From sequence record OR757453.1: 64,000 nt of DNA. One strand, 5' to 3'. Below the pieces are notes generated by a model. It worked only from the letters and a program-made list of their open reading frames with translations, did not search any database and was not told the DNA's origin. Source of the DNA: Escherichia phage BYEP01. This document shows positions 4,541 through 62,537 of the stretch, one piece after another. Made by a program: the position numbers and the translations under genes. Positions within the stretch are counted from its first letter, which is position 1; the number at the start of each line of letters is the position of its first letter.

Positions 4541-4566
4541 AGCTTCTGAAGTATATGGAGGCTATC

Positions 4567-5190
4567 ATGATTATTAATCTTGCAGATGTTGAACAGTTAT
4601 CTATAAAAGCTGAAAGCGTTGATTTTCAATATGATATGTATAAAAAGGTCTGTGAAAAATTTACTGACTTTGAACAGTCAGTTCTTTGGCAATGCATGGA
4701 AGCCAAAAAGAATGAAGCTCTTCATCAGCAGTTGAATAAAATCGTTAAAAAGCATTTAACTAAATCGCCTTATCAGCTATATCGTGGTATATCAAAATCG
4801 ACAAAAGAACTCATTAAAGATTTACAAGTCGGAGAAGTGTTTTCAACGAACAGAGTAGATTCATTTACTACTAGTTTGCACACAGCATGTGGTTTTTCTT
4901 ATGTTGAGTATTTCACTGAAATAATATTTCGCTTAAAAACTGATAAAGCTTTTAATTATTCTGACCATATCAGCGATATTATACTTTCTTCTCCTAATAC
5001 TGAGTTTAAGTATACATATGAAGATACTGATGGATTAGATTCAGAACGTACTGATAACTTAATGATGATTGTGCGTGAACAAGAATGGATGATTCCAATT
5101 GGAAAGTATAAAATAACTTCTATTTCAAAAGAAAAATTACACGATTCATTTGGAACATTTAAAGTGTATGATATTGAGGTAGTTGAATGA
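4567..5190 (+). CDS. modB: ADP-ribosyltransferase ModB
   Basis: 207 aa from second ATG; R / S-T-x / E-Q-E ART motifs (YRG, STN, EQEWMIP). Confidence 0.7.
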   Translation: MIINLADVEQLSIKAESVDFQYDMYKKVCEKFTDFEQSVLWQCMEAKKNEALHQQLNKIVKKHLTKSPYQLYRGISKSTKELIKDLQVGEVFSTNRVDSFTTSLHTACGFSYVEYFTEIIFRLKTDKAFNYSDHISDIILSSPNTEFKYTYEDTDGLDSERTDNLMMIVREQEWMIPIGKYKITSISKEKLHDSFGTFKVYDIEVVE

Positions 5191-5789
5191 AATATTCAGC
5201 AATGCAATTAAAAGATTTTAAAATCAAATCAATGGATGCATCGGTGCGTGCTTCTATTCGTGAAGAATTACTTTCTGAAGGATTTAATTTATCTGAAATT
5301 GAACTTTTAATTCATTGTATTACTAATAAGCCAGACGATCATTCTTGGTTAAATGAAATAATCAAATCTCGTTTGGTTCCAAACGATAAACCTCTTTGGA
5401 GAGGTGTTCCAGTTGAGACTAAACAGGTGTTAAATCAAGGAATTGATATTATTACATTCGATAAAGTAGTATCAGCTTCATATGATAAAAATATAGCTCT
5501 GCATTTTGCTTCTGGATTAGAATACAACACACAAGTTATTTTTGAATTCAAAGCTCCTATGGTATTTAATTTTCAGGAGTATGCTATAAAAGCTCTACGT
5601 TGTAAAGAATATAGTCCGAGTTTTAAATTTCCAGATAGCCATCGCTATCGTAATATGGAATTAGTTTCAGATGAACAGGAAGTAATGATACCAGCTGGAA
5701 GTGTATTTAGAATTGCGGATAGATATGAATATAAAAAGTATTCAACATACACTATCTATACTCTTGATTTTGAAGGATTTAATCTATAA
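5187..5789 (+). CDS. modA: ADP-ribosyltransferase ModA
   Basis: 200 aa; ART motifs (WRG, SAS, EQEVMIP); paralog of the upstream ORF. Confidence 0.7.
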   Translation: MKYSAMQLKDFKIKSMDASVRASIREELLSEGFNLSEIELLIHCITNKPDDHSWLNEIIKSRLVPNDKPLWRGVPVETKQVLNQGIDIITFDKVVSASYDKNIALHFASGLEYNTQVIFEFKAPMVFNFQEYAIKALRCKEYSPSFKFPDSHRYRNMELVSDEQEVMIPAGSVFRIADRYEYKKYSTYTIYTLDFEGFNL

Positions 5790-11873: not shown

Positions 11874-11924
11874 GCTTTATGATTACCGGAGTATAATATT
11901 CCCGAAACCAAACGAGGATAAGTG

Positions 11925-13742
11925 ATGATTAAGAATGAAATTAAAATTCTGAGCGATATTGAACATATCAAAAAGCGTAGCGGCATGTACATTGGCTCTT
12001 CAGCTAATGAAATGCATGAGCGCTTTCTGTTTGGTAAATGGGAAAGTGTTCAGTATGTACCTGGTCTTGTTAAGCTTATTGATGAAATTATCGATAACTC
12101 AGTAGATGAAGGTATTCGTACTAAGTTTAAATTCGCAAATAAAATTAATGTTACCATTAAAAATAATCAGGTAACAGTTGAAGATAACGGTCGTGGTATT
12201 CCACAAGCGATGGTTAAAACACCTACCGGTGAAGAAATTCCTGGTCCTGTTGCTGCCTGGACTATTCCAAAAGCAGGTGGTAACTTTGGTGATGATAAAG
12301 AACGCGTCACCGGCGGTATGAATGGTGTTGGTTCTAGTTTAACTAACATTTTTTCTGTGATGTTTGTCGGTGAAACTGGCGACGGTCAAAATAATATTGT
12401 AGTTCGTTGTTCAAATGGCATGGAAAATAAATCATGGGAAACTATTCCTGGAAAATGGAAAGGAACTCGCGTTACTTTCATTCCTGATTTTATGTCATTT
12501 GAAACTAATGAGCTATCTCAGGTTTATCTTGACATTACACTGGATCGTCTCCAGACACTTGCAGTAGTTTATCCTGATATTCAATTTACCTTTAATGGTA
12601 AAAAGGTTCAGGGTAATTTTAAGAAATATGCACGTCAATATGATGAACATGCTATCGTTCAAGAACAAGAAAACTGTTCTATTGCGGTTGGTCGTTCGCC
12701 GGATGGTTTTCGTCAATTAACATACGTCAATAACATTCATACTAAGAATGGTGGCCATCACATTGACTGTGTTATGGATGATATTTGTGAAGACCTTATT
12801 CCACAAATCAAACGTAAATTTAAAATTGACGTAACTAAAGCACGTGTTAAAGAATGTTTGACTATCGTTATGTTTGTTCGTGATATGAAAAACATGCGAT
12901 TTGATTCTCAAACTAAAGAACGACTTACTTCTCCTTTTGGTGAAATTCGTAGTCATATTCAGCTTGATGCTAAAAAGATTTCACGTGCTATTTTAAATAA
13001 TGAAGCAATTTTAATGCCAATTATTGAAGCTGCCTTGGCTCGTAAATTGGCGGCAGAAAAAGCAGCAGAAACTAAAGCAGCTAAAAAGGCTTCTAAAGCT
13101 AAGGTTCATAAACATATTAAAGCGAATCTTTGCGGTAAAGATGCTGATACTACTCTTTTCTTGACTGAGGGTGATTCTGCTATCGGATATCTTATTGATG
13201 TTCGTGATAAAGAACTTCATGGTGGTTATCCATTGCGCGGTAAAGTTCTTAATAGCTGGGGTATGTCATATGCTGATATGCTTAAAAACAAAGAACTGTT
13301 TGATATTTGCGCAATCACTGGATTAGTTCTTGGCGAAAAGGCAGAGAATACGAACTATCGTAATATTGCAATTATGACTGACGCAGATCACGACGGTCTT
13401 GGAAGTATCTATCCGGCTTTGCTTGCTTTCTTTAGTAATTGGCCTGAATTGTTTGAACAAGGACGTATTCGCTTTGTTAAAACGCCTGTAATTATTGCAC
13501 AAATTGGCAAAACTCAAAAATGGTTTTATACTGTAGCTGAGTATGAAGAAGCTAAAGATGCTCTACCTAAGCATAGTATTCGATACATCAAGGGATTGGG
13601 CTCACTTCAGCGGGATGAATATAAAGAAATGATTCAAAACCCTGTGTACGACGTAGTTAAACTTCCTGAAAATTGGAAAGAACTATTTGAAATGCTCATG
13701 GGTAACGACCCTGAACTCCGTAAAGATTGGATGCTAGGATAA
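11925..13742 (+). CDS. 39: DNA topoisomerase II large subunit gp39, contiguous (no gene 60 split)
   Basis: 605 aa continuous ORF; GHKL ATPase N-terminus; Toprim-like region with DHDG; no internal stop or coding gap. Confidence 0.9.
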   Translation: MIKNEIKILSDIEHIKKRSGMYIGSSANEMHERFLFGKWESVQYVPGLVKLIDEIIDNSVDEGIRTKFKFANKINVTIKNNQVTVEDNGRGIPQAMVKTPTGEEIPGPVAAWTIPKAGGNFGDDKERVTGGMNGVGSSLTNIFSVMFVGETGDGQNNIVVRCSNGMENKSWETIPGKWKGTRVTFIPDFMSFETNELSQVYLDITLDRLQTLAVVYPDIQFTFNGKKVQGNFKKYARQYDEHAIVQEQENCSIAVGRSPDGFRQLTYVNNIHTKNGGHHIDCVMDDICEDLIPQIKRKFKIDVTKARVKECLTIVMFVRDMKNMRFDSQTKERLTSPFGEIRSHIQLDAKKISRAILNNEAILMPIIEAALARKLAAEKAAETKAAKKASKAKVHKHIKANLCGKDADTTLFLTEGDSAIGYLIDVRDKELHGGYPLRGKVLNSWGMSYADMLKNKELFDICAITGLVLGEKAENTNYRNIAIMTDADHDGLGSIYPALLAFFSNWPELFEQGRIRFVKTPVIIAQIGKTQKWFYTVAEYEEAKDALPKHSIRYIKGLGSLQRDEYKEMIQNPVYDVVKLPENWKELFEMLMGNDPELRKDWMLG

Positions 13743-14539
13743 TGAATTATCGTAAAATTTATGATAAACTTATCGCTGCGGCTAAAAACCGCAGCACTAT
13801 TCCTAATTATACTGAAACTCACCATATTTTGCCTAAATCTATGGGCGGGAGTAATGCTAAATCAAATCTAGTTAAAATGACCCCTAGAGAGCATTTTATC
13901 GCCCATTTATTGCTTTATAAAATTCATAAGAACCGTTCTATGCTTATGGCTATTAGAGCTTTTTACATGGGAGCTAGAAATTCTAGAGATTATGATTGGC
14001 TTAAACAAGAATTCTCTAAAGAGCACTCTAGATTTATGAAAGAATGGATTGCTAAAAATGGCAACCCATTTAAAGGTAAAAAACATACTAAAGCAACAAG
14101 AGAATTAATGTCACATATTGCTTCACAACGTATAGGCGAATTAAATCCATTTTATGGTAAAACTCATACGCAAGAAGCAATAGATAAAATAATACAGGCT
14201 AACAAGTTATCTTGGGAGAATGGGCGAAAAGCACCTGTAAAAACAAAAGAACACCAGGATAAAATAACTAAATCAAGAATGGAAACATTTAAAACAAAAG
14301 GATTTAAACCATACACTCCTAGGTCAGAAGAAACTAAAGCTAAGACTAGAGAGTTGTATAAATCTAAATATGAAAGAAGGCCTATAAGAATCACAAGTGT
14401 AAAAACAGGTGAAACTATTGATTTTAACTATCTTTATGAATTAAGGGAGTATTTAGATATAGGGTCTTCTAATATATTGAAAGCATTAAATAATCCTAAC
14501 AGAACCTGCAAAGGTTATAAAATGTGTTGGATGTCCTAA
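13742..14539 (+). CDS. HNH homing endonuclease (MobA-like, with NUMOD-like repeats)
   Basis: 265 aa; HNH core ETHHILPKSMGGSNAKSNLVKMTPREH; ATG overlaps the gene 39 stop (TAATG). Confidence 0.75.
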   Translation: MNYRKIYDKLIAAAKNRSTIPNYTETHHILPKSMGGSNAKSNLVKMTPREHFIAHLLLYKIHKNRSMLMAIRAFYMGARNSRDYDWLKQEFSKEHSRFMKEWIAKNGNPFKGKKHTKATRELMSHIASQRIGELNPFYGKTHTQEAIDKIIQANKLSWENGRKAPVKTKEHQDKITKSRMETFKTKGFKPYTPRSEETKAKTRELYKSKYERRPIRITSVKTGETIDFNYLYELREYLDIGSSNILKALNNPNRTCKGYKMCWMS

Positions 14540-17113: not shown

Positions 17114-18053
17114 ATGTACAATATTAAATGCCTGACCAAAAACGAACAAGCTGAAATTGTCAAACTGTATTCAAGTGGTAATTACACCCAACAGGAATTG
17201 GCTGATTGGCAAGGTGTATCGGTGGACACAATCCGTCGTGTTTTGAAAAATGCTGAAGAAGCTGAGCGCTCCAAAGTTACCATTAGCGGTGACATTACAG
17301 TTACAGTTAAGAGCGATGCAGCTATTGCTCCAGTTGCTAAATCTGACATTATTTGGAATGCATCTAAAAAATTCATTTCAATTACTGTTGACGGTGTAAC
17401 TTATAACGCAACTCCTAATACTCATTCAAACTTCCAAGAAATTCTTAATCTGCTTGTTGCAGATAAATTGGAAGAAGCGGCGCAAAAAATTAACGTTCGT
17501 CGCGCTGTTGAAAAATATATTTCCGGTGATGTTCGAATTGAAGGTGGAAGCTTGTTCTATCAAAATATTGAATTGCGGTCTGGTTTAGTTGATCGTATTC
17601 TCGATTCGATGGAAAAAGGTGAAAACTTTGAATTTTATTTTCCGTTCCTGGAAAATCTGTTAGAAAACCCAAGCCAAAAAGCGGTAATCTCGACTCTTTG
17701 ATTTCTTGGTAGCAAACGATATTGAAATTACAGAAGACGGTTACTTCTATGCTTGGAAAGTAGTTCGCAGTAATTACTTTGACTGCCATTCAAATACTTT
17801 TGATAACAGTCCTGGTAAAGTAGTTAAAATGCCACGTACTCGTGTGAATGACGATGATACACAAACTTGTTCTCGTGGTCTGCATGTGTGTTCTAAATCT
17901 TATATTCGTCACTTTGGCAGTTCAACCAGCCGAGTTGTAAAAGTTAAAGTACATCCTCGCGATGTAGTATCAATTCCGATTGATTACAACGATGCTAAAA
18001 TGCGTACCTGCCAATACGAAGTAGTTGAAGACGTTACTGAACAATTCAAATAA
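17114..18053 (+). pseudogene. rIIB: rIIB interrupted by an apparent +1 frameshift (ORFs 17114..17701 and 17706..18053)
   Basis: 195 aa and 115 aa ORFs in adjacent frames; joining the frames near 17686 gives exactly 312 aa, the T4 rIIB length. Confidence 0.7.
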
Positions 18054-55582: not shown

Positions 55583-55586
55583 GTTA

Positions 55587-55613
55587 AGGACTCCCGAAGG
55601 AGTCCTTTTTTAT
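55587..55613 (+). terminator. rho-independent terminator
   Basis: AGGACTCC-CGAA-GGAGTCCT then TTTTTT. Confidence 0.8.
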
Positions 55614-55692: not shown

Positions 55693-56025
55693 ATGAAAAC
55701 GATTAATCTGAACGCCACAGTTAAAACTAAATGCTTCAATGGTAAATATGATGAAACTATGTGGTTCTTAATGGCAGTTGAAGGTGATATTATTGAAGTA
55801 GAAACAACAGAAGGTATGGGAACAGATTTCACCTTTACAATTCAAGTTCATAATTTCTTTACTGGTTGGATTTATGAATTGAATACAGTAATCGTTGGAA
55901 AAATTGAACAAAATGAATTAGGCGAATGGTATTATGTTACAGCTCGCCAACGTGCCGAACGCTTAATTAAGAAGATGAAAAAAGTTGGTAAACTTGACAT
56001 GCAGCATTGGAAAGTAGTAAAATAA
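55693..56025 (+). CDS. hypothetical protein
   Basis: 110 aa ORF. Confidence 0.4.
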   Translation: MKTINLNATVKTKCFNGKYDETMWFLMAVEGDIIEVETTEGMGTDFTFTIQVHNFFTGWIYELNTVIVGKIEQNELGEWYYVTARQRAERLIKKMKKVGKLDMQHWKVVK

Positions 56026-56787: not shown

Positions 56788-56984
56788 TGAAATTCTTTTT
56801 AGGTCAAACTGTTGAATTAAAGGGAGTTGGTATACCTGGATTAATTTCTAAGGTTCTACCTCCATTTAAATGGAGTGGTATTCAAATAAAAGAGGCTTAT
56901 ATTGTTTCCTGGGTAGATGGAAATGAAGACCTTCGTATGGGTGATGAATTATCTCCTATCTACGGATTAAAGGAATTAGTATGA
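56787..56984 (+). CDS. hypothetical protein
   Basis: 65 aa ORF. Confidence 0.35.
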   Translation: MKFFLGQTVELKGVGIPGLISKVLPPFKWSGIQIKEAYIVSWVDGNEDLRMGDELSPIYGLKELV

Positions 56985-57187
56985 ATATAATTAATAAGAT
57001 TTTTGGAATTCAGTACATTAAGGTCACATATAAAGTAACAGATAAAAATCCATATACTGATGAACATGAAGAACCACGAGTTGAGTCTATTATATTAGAA
57101 AAGGACCCTAACTGGCCAGTTGAATTTCGTCTTCCTTGCTATGGTCATTGGGCTGATGTTGAAATTATAAGCATTGAAAATGTCTGA
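56981..57187 (+). CDS. hypothetical protein
   Basis: 68 aa ORF. Confidence 0.35.
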   Translation: MNIINKIFGIQYIKVTYKVTDKNPYTDEHEEPRVESIILEKDPNWPVEFRLPCYGHWADVEIISIENV

Positions 57188-57638
57188 GTTAGAGATTAGA
57201 AGCAATTTTAGGTGGCCATCATGTGCATTAAGTAATTTCGCCCAATGGCCTTTCGTTATGGATGGTATTCAATTTGGAGGTCTTGAAGGATTCCTCCAAG
57301 GATGCAAGGTGAAAAACGTTGAACAACAACGTCGTATATTTGGGTTATCTGGGCTTGCCGCTCAACAAGCTGGAAGGTCTTATGCTAGAGCTCAGGACCG
57401 TGGGACCCTCTTCTGGCTTGGAGTTCCGTTTTCAAGATACTCCCCGGCGTGGAAAGAATTATACACAAATGCATATTTTGAAGCAGCGTTCCAAAACAAG
57501 GGTTTTCGCGATGCATTACAAGCCTCGAAAGGAAAAGTTTTGAAGCACAGCATGGCTAGTGGTCTAACAAAAGATGATACAATACTAACCGAAGCTGAAT
57601 TTATTGATGTGTTAAACCTATTAAGAGACTCTCTATGA
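57180..57638 (+). CDS. NADAR / YbiA-like (DUF1768) domain protein
   Basis: 152 aa; ALSNFAQWPFVMDGIQFGGLEGFLQGCK resembles the YbiA FSNFA...SEHYFQA signature. Confidence 0.45.
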   Translation: MSELEIRSNFRWPSCALSNFAQWPFVMDGIQFGGLEGFLQGCKVKNVEQQRRIFGLSGLAAQQAGRSYARAQDRGTLFWLGVPFSRYSPAWKELYTNAYFEAAFQNKGFRDALQASKGKVLKHSMASGLTKDDTILTEAEFIDVLNLLRDSL

Positions 57639-58522
57639 AGCCTACTATTTTAACTGATATTGATGGAGTATGTTTAAGCTGGCAATCAGGCCTTCCTTAT
57701 TTTGCTCAGAAATATAATCTTCCGTTAGAACATATTTTAAAAATGATCCAAGATGAGAAATTTATTTCTCCAGGTAAACTCTTTAATTGTGATGAAGAAC
57801 TTGGCGTCAAGTTAATTGAAAAATACAATCGTTCAGATTTTATTCGTTACTTGTCTCCGTATAAAGATGCCCTGTGTGTAATTAACAAATTAAAAGAAGA
57901 TTATAATTTTGTAGCTGTTACAGCATTGGGTGATTCTATTGACGCTCTGTTGAATCGTCAATTTAATTTGAATGCTCTTTTTCCTGGTGCCTTCTCAGAA
58001 GTAATGATGTGTGGCCATGATTCTTCAAAAGAAGAGTTGTTTAAAAAGGCAAAAGAGAAATATAACGTAATTTGTTATATTGACGATCTCGCTCACCACT
58101 GTGACCACGCGAGTGAAATATTAAATGTTCCGGTTTATTGGATGGCTCGAGGAGAGCGTGACAATATTCCAAAAACTGCGCAGCGAGTTTATACATGGAA
58201 TGATGTAGAAAATAAGCTTTTTTCACCAAAGGAAAATAAAGAAAGTTTTGATAGTGAAAAAGCTATAAAAGATGTAATTGAGAAGATGGTTAAAAACGAT
58301 TCTTTTCGTTGGAACACTACCTGGAGAACTCCTGGATTTAATCCGTATAATCCATATTATACACATCCATATAATCCATATTATACACATCCATATAATC
58401 CATATTATACACACCCGTATCATATGAATCCATTCCATACGTGGAGTTATACCAAGCCTGGCGATGCAGGGTATTTTAATAGATTTACTAGTGGTGATAA
58501 TATTTTCCAAGGAGCATTCTAA
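57635..58522 (+). CDS. HAD-superfamily phosphatase-like protein with C-terminal tandem repeats
   Basis: 295 aa; N-terminal DIDGV motif; three 24-nt repeats encoding NPYYTHPY. Confidence 0.5.
   Translation: MKPTILTDIDGVCLSWQSGLPYFAQKYNLPLEHILKMIQDEKFISPGKLFNCDEELGVKLIEKYNRSDFIRYLSPYKDALCVINKLKEDYNFVAVTALGDSIDALLNRQFNLNALFPGAFSEVMMCGHDSSKEELFKKAKEKYNVICYIDDLAHHCDHASEILNVPVYWMARGERDNIPKTAQRVYTWNDVENKLFSPKENKESFDSEKAIKDVIEKMVKNDSFRWNTTWRTPGFNPYNPYYTHPYNPYYTHPYNPYYTHPYHMNPFHTWSYTKPGDAGYFNRFTSGDNIFQGAF
58342..58420 (+). repeat. tandem 24-nt repeat, 3 copies
   Basis: CCATATAATCCATATTATACACAT repeated three times inside the coding sequence. Confidence 0.8.
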
Positions 58523-60465: not shown

Positions 60466-60488
60466 GAATAAACACTAGAGAGGATATG

Positions 60489-62537
60489 ATGGAACTAATT
60501 ACAGAATTATTTGACGAAGATACTACTCTTCCGATTACAAACTTAAATCCAAAGAAGAAAATACCACAAATTTTTTCAGTTCATGTTGATGACGCAATTG
60601 AACAACCAGGCTTTCGTTTATGTACCTATACATCTGGAGGTGATACTAATCGTGATTTAAAGATGGGCGATAAAATGATGCACATTGTTCCTTTTACATT
60701 AACTGCTAAAGGTTCAATTGCTAAATTGAAAGGTCTTGGTCCAAGCCCAATTAATTATATCAATTCAGTTTTTACTGTTGCAATGCAAACAATGCGTCAG
60801 TATAAAATTGATGCCTGCATGCTTCGTATTCTTAAGTCTAAAACCGCTGGTCAAGCTCGACAAATTCAAGTTATTGCTGATAGACTTATCCGTAGTCGTT
60901 CAGGTGGCAGATACGTCCTTCTTAAGGAACTCTGGGATTATGATAAAAAGTATGCATATATTCTTATACATCGCAAAAATGTATCACTAGAAGACATTCC
61001 AGGAGTTCCGGAAATTAGTACCGAGCTCTTTACTAAAGTTGAATCGAAGGTCGGTGATGTTTATATCAATAAAGATACTGGAGCTCAAGTAACTAAAAAT
61101 GAGGCAATTGCAGCATCTATTGCGCAAGAAAACGATAAACGTTCTGACCAAGCTGTAATCGTTAAAGTTAAAATTTCCCGTAGAGCAATTGCACAAAGTC
61201 AGTCATTGGAATCTTCTAGATTTGAAACACCGATGTTTCAAAAATTTGAGGCTTCAGCGGCAGAATTAAATAAACCAGCGGACGCGCCTTTAATTTCTGA
61301 TTCTAATGAATTAACGGTAATTTCTACTTCAGGATTTGCACTAGAGAATGCTCTTAATAGTGTTACAGCTGGGATGGCATTCAGAGAAGCTTCTATAATT
61401 CCTGAAGATAAAGAATCTGATGTTAATGCAGAAATAAAAAATAAAGCTTTAGAAAGATTACGAAAAGAATCTATTACTTCAATAAAAACTTTAGAAACTA
61501 TTGCTTCTATCGTCGATGATACTTTAGAAAAATATAAAGGTGCTTGGTTTGAAAGAAATATTAACAGACATTCGCATTTAAACCAAGATGCTGCAAATGA
61601 GTTAGTACAAAATTCTTGGAATGCAATAAAAACAAAGATTATTCGAAGAGAATTACGTGGATATGCTCTTACCGCTGGATGGTCATTACATCCTATAGTC
61701 GAAAATAAAGATTCATCTAAATACACACCAGCGCAAAAACGCGGAATTCGTGAATATGTAGGTTCAGGATATGTAGACATAAATAATGCTCTTTTGGGAT
61801 TATATAATCCAGATGAGCGTACAAGTATTTTAACAGCACCTGAAATAGAACAAGCCATTGATAATTTAGATTCAGCCTTTAAAAATGGTGAACGATTACC
61901 AAAAGGTATTACTTTGTATCGTTCACAACGAATGTTACCTTCAATATATGAAGCAATGGTAAAAAATCGAGTTTTTTATTTTAGAAACTTTGTGTCAACA
62001 TCATTATATCCAAATATTTTTGGTACTTGGATGACTGATTCATCTATAGGTGTTTTACCAGACGAAAAGCGTCTAAGTGTTTCTATTGATAAAACTGATG
62101 AAGGGCTTGTTAATTCTAGCGATAATTTAGTCGGAATTGGATGGGTTATTACTGGGGCTGATAAGGTCAATGTTGTTTTACCCGGTGGAAGTTTAGCGCC
62201 TTCAAATGAAATGGAAGTCATTTTGCCACGTGGATTAATGGTCAAAGTTAATAAAATAACCGATGCATCTTACAACGATGGAACAGTTAGAACTAACAAC
62301 AAGCTTATTCAAGCTGAAGTTATGACTACAGAAGAACTCACCGAATCGGTAATTTATGACGGTGACCGTTTAATGGAAACTGGTGAATTGGTTACAATGA
62401 CAGGTGATATAGAAGATAGAGTTGACTTTGCATCATTTGTTTCATCAAATGTTAAACAGAAAGTAGAATCATCTCTTGGAATTATTGCGTCTTGCATAGA
62501 TATTGCAAACATGCCTTACAAGTTCGTTCAAGGATAA
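60489..62537 (+). CDS. alt: ADP-ribosyltransferase Alt
   Basis: 682 aa from second ATG; matches T4 Alt length and N-terminus. Confidence 0.85.
   Translation: MELITELFDEDTTLPITNLNPKKKIPQIFSVHVDDAIEQPGFRLCTYTSGGDTNRDLKMGDKMMHIVPFTLTAKGSIAKLKGLGPSPINYINSVFTVAMQTMRQYKIDACMLRILKSKTAGQARQIQVIADRLIRSRSGGRYVLLKELWDYDKKYAYILIHRKNVSLEDIPGVPEISTELFTKVESKVGDVYINKDTGAQVTKNEAIAASIAQENDKRSDQAVIVKVKISRRAIAQSQSLESSRFETPMFQKFEASAAELNKPADAPLISDSNELTVISTSGFALENALNSVTAGMAFREASIIPEDKESDVNAEIKNKALERLRKESITSIKTLETIASIVDDTLEKYKGAWFERNINRHSHLNQDAANELVQNSWNAIKTKIIRRELRGYALTAGWSLHPIVENKDSSKYTPAQKRGIREYVGSGYVDINNALLGLYNPDERTSILTAPEIEQAIDNLDSAFKNGERLPKGITLYRSQRMLPSIYEAMVKNRVFYFRNFVSTSLYPNIFGTWMTDSSIGVLPDEKRLSVSIDKTDEGLVNSSDNLVGIGWVITGADKVNVVLPGGSLAPSNEMEVILPRGLMVKVNKITDASYNDGTVRTNNKLIQAEVMTTEELTESVIYDGDRLMETGELVTMTGDIEDRVDFASFVSSNVKQKVESSLGIIASCIDIANMPYKFVQG

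Follow-up and report, generated by a model that had tools for sequence, protein, structure and literature searches.

A T-even gene 30.3 (adfN) ortholog of Escherichia phage BYEP01 encodes a NADAR-superfamily protein with a predicted role in reversing DarT1 modification of DNA

We have identified an open reading frame (ORF) of Escherichia phage BYEP01 as T-even gene 30.3 (adfN), which very probably encodes a DNA ADP-ribosylglycohydrolase that clears the guanine-ADP-ribose (guanine-ADPr) made by DarT1; this function is transferred from the phage T4 protein. The gene lies in a window of 64,000 nucleotides (sequence record OR757453.1), the whole stretch of DNA that was analysed; the window belongs to a T4-like Tequatrovirus, and its strand is the opposite of that in the T4 reference. 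For the window's adfN we establish orthology, fold, catalytic residues and an unshortened product, and the biochemistry and phenotype come from the literature on the 99%-identical T4 protein. The anti-DarT1 finding is already known (AdfN/gp30.3, published 2024-2025), and the window adds nothing mechanistic to it.

Background

NADAR proteins reverse the guanine ADP-ribosylation made by DarT1, and a His variant has been pointed out in phage NADARs (Schuller et al. 2023, PMC11543638). At the third catalytic position, the YbiA family has Glu, DarT1-linked NADARs have Asp and phage gp30.3 NADARs have His (PMC11543638, PMC11125620). The NADAR of an E. coli-infecting phage hydrolyses guanine-ADPr, not thymidine-ADPr, in vitro (Cihlova et al. 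2024, PMC11125620); according to its citation by Johannesman et al. (PMC11825919), this protein is T4 gp30.3. DarTG1 resistance of phages T2 and T4 has been mapped to gene 30.3, renamed adfN (Johannesman et al. 2025, PMC11825919). T4 or T2 phages from which adfN has been deleted no longer form plaques on DarTG1 cells, a phenotype described specifically for DarTG1 hosts and compared with empty-vector hosts, and expression of AdfN rescues phage RB69 (PMC11825919). For T-even phages to resist DarTG1 during infection, AdfN-T4 is both necessary and sufficient; DarTG2 is not countered by it (PMC11825919).

Purified wild-type AdfN-T4 strips ADPr from DarT1-modified DNA, and the E36A mutant does not; E36A (in vivo and in vitro), K43A and an RB69-like truncation all impair the protein (PMC11825919). 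In the RB69 allele, a T insertion at nt 411 causes a frameshift that truncates 15 residues and reduces activity (PMC11825919). Uninfected E. coli that expresses the T4 protein is not rescued from DarT1 toxicity (PMC11125620; PMC11825919 Fig. 4e), and the protein helps phages T5 and Bas25 weakly; it is fully active only during T-even infection, and a phage co-factor has been proposed (PMC11825919). The first-pass annotation of the window, made from the letters alone, had suggested that the ORF may remove ADP-ribose from guanine in DNA and so act against DarT. That suggestion is supported by what is published for the T4 ortholog, gp30.3 = AdfN (PMC11825919, PMC11125620).

Results

The ORF has the coordinates and length that the first-pass annotation gave it and is a real gene, as judged from a match of its product to PF08010 at E 8.6e-70, identity to T4 gp30.3 (NP_049816) at 150 of 152 residues, and homologues in 1510 phage records. 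The gene and an ORF nested within it are positioned as follows.

57180..57638 (stop codon included), + strand: adfN, T4 gene 30.3 ortholog; 152-aa NADAR-superfamily protein, very probably a DNA ADP-ribosylglycohydrolase
57319-57543, + strand: ORF 30.3', the internal ORF annotated in T4, inside adfN in another frame

The start codon is ATG 57180 and the stop codon TGA 57636-57638, giving a product of 152 aa (sequence and ORF list). An in-frame TTG is located two codons 5' of the ATG, and the ATG is the start in the T4 annotation. Relative to T4, the product carries I104F and I125M (I in T4, F104 and M125 here), which are conservative changes at positions that are both variable across the family in the 58-homologue alignment. 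At the nucleotide level the gene differs from that of T4 at 11 positions, eight synonymous and three non-synonymous; two of these three fall within one codon, so that two residues change. On sequence comparison, adfN is under purifying selection. The product is 100% identical to a phage phiC600P9 protein, and the surrounding 3 kb is 98.1% identical to phiC600P9 and is matched by 736 phage records. Homologues of adfN occur in deposited records of Escherichia, Klebsiella, Shigella, Aeromonas, Acinetobacter, Vibrio and other phages, and almost all of the 1510 annotate them as 'hypothetical protein'.

ORF 30.3' was considered as a second product of the locus and rejected; the ATG of T4 is ACG here, leaving only a TTG. 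Within the overlap, the differences from T4 amount to one synonymous and six non-synonymous in the 30.3' frame, versus five synonymous and two non-synonymous in the adfN frame. It is probably not a selected coding gene.

The match of the adfN product to Pfam family PF08010 (Phage_30_3) scores 233.4 bits, where the cut-off (gathering score) is 36 bits, and spans profile positions 1-138 of 138. PF08719 (NADAR) gave no direct match even at E<=10, an NCBIfam search gave no match, and a PDB search with the single sequence returned no NADAR, its best hit being a chance match (E 0.82). In PHROGs, the product belongs to phrog_652, annotated as function unknown. It covers only positions 126-272 of that 296-position profile, so some phrog_652 members seem to be longer at the N-terminus by about 125 residues, through an extension or a fusion.

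A family alignment was assembled from 58 full-length homologues of 34-87% identity. PF08719 is matched by 22 of these 58 (best E 1.5e-7), several homologues carry the JGI label 'YbiA (DUF1768 family)', and one of them, P0081, has both Pfam matches. The 58-member profile matches E. coli YbiA (2b3w, residues 29-82) at E 0.006, and it does so over the segment that had been flagged at first pass for its resemblance to the YbiA signature; the alignment sets LsnFa..F.vDG....sEgFlQ..Kf against FSNFAAWPIKVDGKTWPTSEHYFQAQKF. AlphaFold modelling of the product reached a pLDDT of 36 from the single sequence, and a pLDDT of 93.3 with a pTM of 0.88 from the 58-sequence alignment. Structural comparison gave the following values.

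8bau, Phytophthora NADAR with ADP-ribose: 11.9
2b3w, E. coli YbiA: 11.4
8bat, Geobacter lovleyi DarG1-type NADAR: 9.3

Membership of the adfN product in the NADAR superfamily is solid on the basis of family profile, transitive matches and fold, and the NADAR/YbiA-like domain proposed by the first-pass annotation is also published for the T4 ortholog. The missing PF08719 match does not exclude the superfamily, because the clade is divergent and has a model of its own, PF08010. We therefore rejected the absent PF08719 and NCBIfam matches as a refutation of NADAR identity, given that family profile, transitive matches and fold agree. A profile match to NADAR/DUF1768, to which the first-pass annotation had looked, is found by way of the family profile and the transitive matches and is not found directly; to take 'no significant profile match' as a refutation would have misfired, as a false negative for adfN.

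The features of the active site and of the C-terminus are listed below.

57225..57308, + strand: NADAR/YbiA signature segment ALSNFAQWPFVMDGIQFGGLEGFLQGCK (ALSNF...EGFLQGCK), residues 16-43, aligned to YbiA 29-82
57285..57287, + strand: catalytic Glu36, codon GAA, invariant in the family; equivalent to PnNADAR E43 and E. coli C7 NADAR E88
57306..57308, + strand: Lys43, phosphate-coordinating, codon AAG, conserved in at least 90%; equivalent to PnNADAR K50 and C7 K95
57546..57548, + strand: His123, codon CAC, replacing the YbiA-family Glu (Asp in DarG1-type), invariant in 58 homologues
57591..57635, + strand: C-terminal helix, residues 138-152 (helix 138-151 in the model); C-terminus identical to T4

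Within the signature segment, A16, L17, S18, N19, F20, F25, E36, G37, F38 and Q40 are invariant in the 58 homologues. The spacing of E36 and K43 (+7) is the same as that of E43/K50 in PnNADAR and E88/K95 in the C7 NADAR, the equivalence of these residues being as published (PMC11543638). His123 directly follows the last strand (120-122) of the AlphaFold model. An earlier remark that some YbiA-conserved residues differ in this protein was correct, and it is explained by H123 standing in place of the YbiA-family Glu (PMC11543638). The predicted catalytic triad E36, K43, H123 is intact in the window's adfN. The C-terminal helix, which the RB69 frameshift allele has lost, is present in full.

Gene order is as in T4, namely 30.4, 30.3, 30.2, 30.1, 30 (DNA ligase) and then alt, and adfN overlaps the gene on either side.

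56981..57187, + strand: gene 30.4 homologue; 8-nt overlap of its stop with the adfN start; phrog_2042, function unknown
57635..58522, + strand: gene 30.2 homologue with a product of 295 aa; overlap of its ATG with the adfN stop (ATGA); phrog_420

With 30.4 and 30.2 as its neighbours, adfN has no DarT-like gene in its flanks (ORF list, Pfam and PHROGs). The 30.4/adfN overlap suggests translational coupling. The gene probably lies within a co-directional 30.7-to-30 string with overlapping starts and stops, behind a promoter-like site. This site, at 55994-56023 (+), is near-consensus (TTGACA, 18 nt, TAAAAT; 11/12) and stands just 5' of the string; overall, the region holds no more promoter-like sites than shuffled sequence does. 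A terminator-like hairpin with a 9-bp stem and a T run precedes it at 55586-55607 (+).

The product of gene 30.2 is 88% identical to T4 gp30.2 and gave no Pfam match and no meaningful PDB sequence match; its N-terminal TDIDGV resembles what we take to be HAD-type motif I. A 24-nt tandem repeat at 58341-58420 (3.3 copies, 94% match) encodes NPYYTHPY units in this gene. T4 gp30.2 has 278 aa versus 295 here and lacks 18 residues at the repeat, so that repeat copy number varies between close relatives. Adjacency of the 30.2 and 30.3 genes, looked for as a sign of a conserved partnership, is not kept in Aeromonas phage 31, where the adfN homologue is within a tRNA cluster, in Phi1, where it is immediately 5' of the ligase gene, or in a 308-kb phage-like contig, where the ORF downstream of a distant adfN homologue is unrelated to gp30.2.

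On that metagenomic contig (L003), the Phage_30_3 homologue P0038 occupies 5001-5468 and is 38% identical. Contigs with P0038 are very large and phage-like, up to 424 kb, and the ORFs surrounding it have no Pfam match. A NUDIX hydrolase gene and a Thg1-family gene are found less than 5 kb from P0038 on L003; a NUDIX beside a NADAR fits a putative role in ADP-ribose handling.

The first-pass annotation had noted that ModA, ModB and Alt are encoded in the same window as adfN, and all three were recovered, ModA and ModB by record annotation and Alt by PF03496.

4555-5190 and 5187-5789: ModB and ModA, respectively; no Pfam match; NAD-protein ADP-ribosyltransferases in near-identical phage records; order as in T4
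60486-62537: Alt, PF03496, E 8.6e-35

Several other features of the window were recorded. The topoisomerase large-subunit gene 39 (11922-13742, +) is a single ORF of 606 aa with GyrB, HATPase and TOPRIM_C domains, unlike in T4, where this subunit is presumably split into genes 39 and 60. The ORF that follows it at 13727-14539 (+) has 270 aa and contains NUMOD3, a motif typical of homing endonucleases. Directly after a 725-aa rIIA-like ORF, a 195-aa ORF at 17114-17701 (+) has resolvase-type HTH matches (HTH_7, HTH_28, HTH_29), in the place that we take to be occupied by rIIB in T4. This 195-aa ORF could be a mobile-element gene or a regulator gene that was inserted here.

Discussion

In the mechanism that we propose for the window's gene, infection of a host with the DarTG1 toxin-antitoxin system would release DarT1, which would ADP-ribosylate guanines of the phage DNA and block its replication. 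AdfN, a small stand-alone enzyme of NADAR fold, would then hydrolyse the bond between guanine and ADP-ribose, in the same way as DarG1, the host antitoxin, and replicable phage DNA would be restored. On this reading, AdfN is an orphan, antitoxin-like counter-defence enzyme.

The closest known system is AdfN-T4 itself (gp30.3, PF08010), with which the window's gene shares length, E36/K43/H123, the C-terminal helix, the flanking 30.4 and 30.2 genes and the overlaps with them. The two differ in I104F, I125M and the longer tandem repeat of the window's gp30.2, and none of these suggests a functional difference. DarG1, a NADAR antitoxin of BC4488 type (8bat, E. coli C7 NADAR), is associated with DarT1, whereas adfN has no adjoining DarT gene and is an orphan rather than a DarTG1 member. 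DarG1 also has an N-terminal extension (219 aa in 8bat), in contrast to the 152-aa adfN product, which has about 13 residues before the first NADAR motif, and its catalytic Asp (D171 in C7) is replaced by His123; in cells that are not infected, the T4 ortholog cannot stand in for DarG1. E. coli YbiA and PnNADAR (PF08719) are 19-21% identical to the adfN product. The last-strand Glu of the YbiA family in the sense of de Souza & Aravind (PnNADAR E125; PMC11543638) is the invariant H123 in AdfN, and YbiA has housekeeping and riboflavin roles and gives no protection against DarT1. AdfN-Bas32 and AdfN-Bas60, from T5-like and Vequintavirinae phages, resemble AdfN-T4 in being phage-borne and guanine-specific and in reversing DarTG1, but they belong to other NADAR clades, were independently acquired and work without infection, whereas AdfN-T4 needs a T-even context (PMC11825919).

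Three other readings of the gene were weighed against a DNA ADP-ribosylglycohydrolase that counters DarT1. By listing the three transferases beside adfN, the first-pass annotation implied a link between them, and AdfN could on that reading limit or erase the modifications made by the phage's own Alt, ModA and ModB as the eraser of a self-regulating pair. The genes do share a 64-kb window, and NAD/ADPr-system genes often co-occur in phages, an observation attributed to Iyer et al. (2022). However, the distance from adfN to the transferase genes ranges from 3 kb to over 50 kb, these genes lie outside the overlapping 30.x cluster, and the neighbourhoods of distant Phage_30_3 homologues are unrelated. 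The T4 annotation describes Alt, ModA and ModB as protein ADP-ribosyltransferases that act on RNA polymerase and translation factors, whereas every NADAR tested, that of T4 included, acts on guanine-ADPr in DNA and not on thymidine-ADPr, and the published deletion phenotype is specific to DarTG1 hosts (PMC11825919). The implied link found no support, the demonstrated target being DarT1-made guanine-ADPr on DNA, and we consider such a pair very unlikely.

A block of DarT1 without catalysis, in which AdfN would bind the toxin as AdfA or type II antitoxins do, has some precedent, since AdfA of the same phage group works through DarT1 binding and another phage NADAR has been reported to be non-enzymatic; the partial rescue activity left in the E36A and K43A mutants of AdfN-T4 (PMC11825919) also speaks for it. 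The gene of AdfA, the other anti-DarT factor (T4 61.2), was looked for and would lie just upstream of the window, which begins at dam, downstream of 61.2. Against binding, AdfN-T4 and DarT1 showed no bacterial two-hybrid interaction, and it is the purified wild type, not E36A, that clears ADPr from DNA (PMC11825919); the catalytic residues are moreover invariant across the family. We regard this reading as extremely unlikely. There is next to no chance that AdfN is instead a housekeeping N-glycosidase of YbiA type with the second documented NADAR activity, detoxification of intermediates of the riboflavin pathway. In the adfN product His takes the place of the family-defining Glu, no riboflavin genes are found near adfN in the ORF list, published phylogeny sets the gp30.3 clade beside DarG1-type NADARs and not YbiA, and both the DarTG1 phenotype and DNA de-ADP-ribosylation have been demonstrated for the T4 protein (PMC11825919). 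Removal of DarT1-made guanine-ADPr from DNA is the reading that we retain.

A model in which this enzyme alone is enough is incomplete, because the T4 protein gives no rescue in uninfected E. coli and weak help to T5 and Bas25. The conserved overlapping neighbours of adfN are cheap candidates for the T-even co-factor, and if gp30.2 were that co-factor, adfN would be half of a two-gene counter-defence module. That the co-factor is encoded by a gene overlapping adfN, with gp30.2 as the best candidate, nevertheless appears improbable. Local gene overlap is the whole of the support for a partnership of gp30.2 with gp30.3, and their non-adjacency elsewhere neither supports nor excludes one in T-even phages.

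The family also bears on annotation practice. Plain PF08719 scans miss the PF08010 clade, so annotation pipelines should map PF08010 to AdfN/NADAR, and public annotation of the 1510 homologue records lags behind the 2024-2025 literature. Enzymes of the His123 clade may also remove the ADP-ribose that other defence ADP-ribosyltransferases, directed at guanine or RNA, leave behind. In adfN, a lytic phage would carry an orphan antitoxin-like enzyme for the chemical repair of its own DNA once a toxin-antitoxin defence has attacked it.
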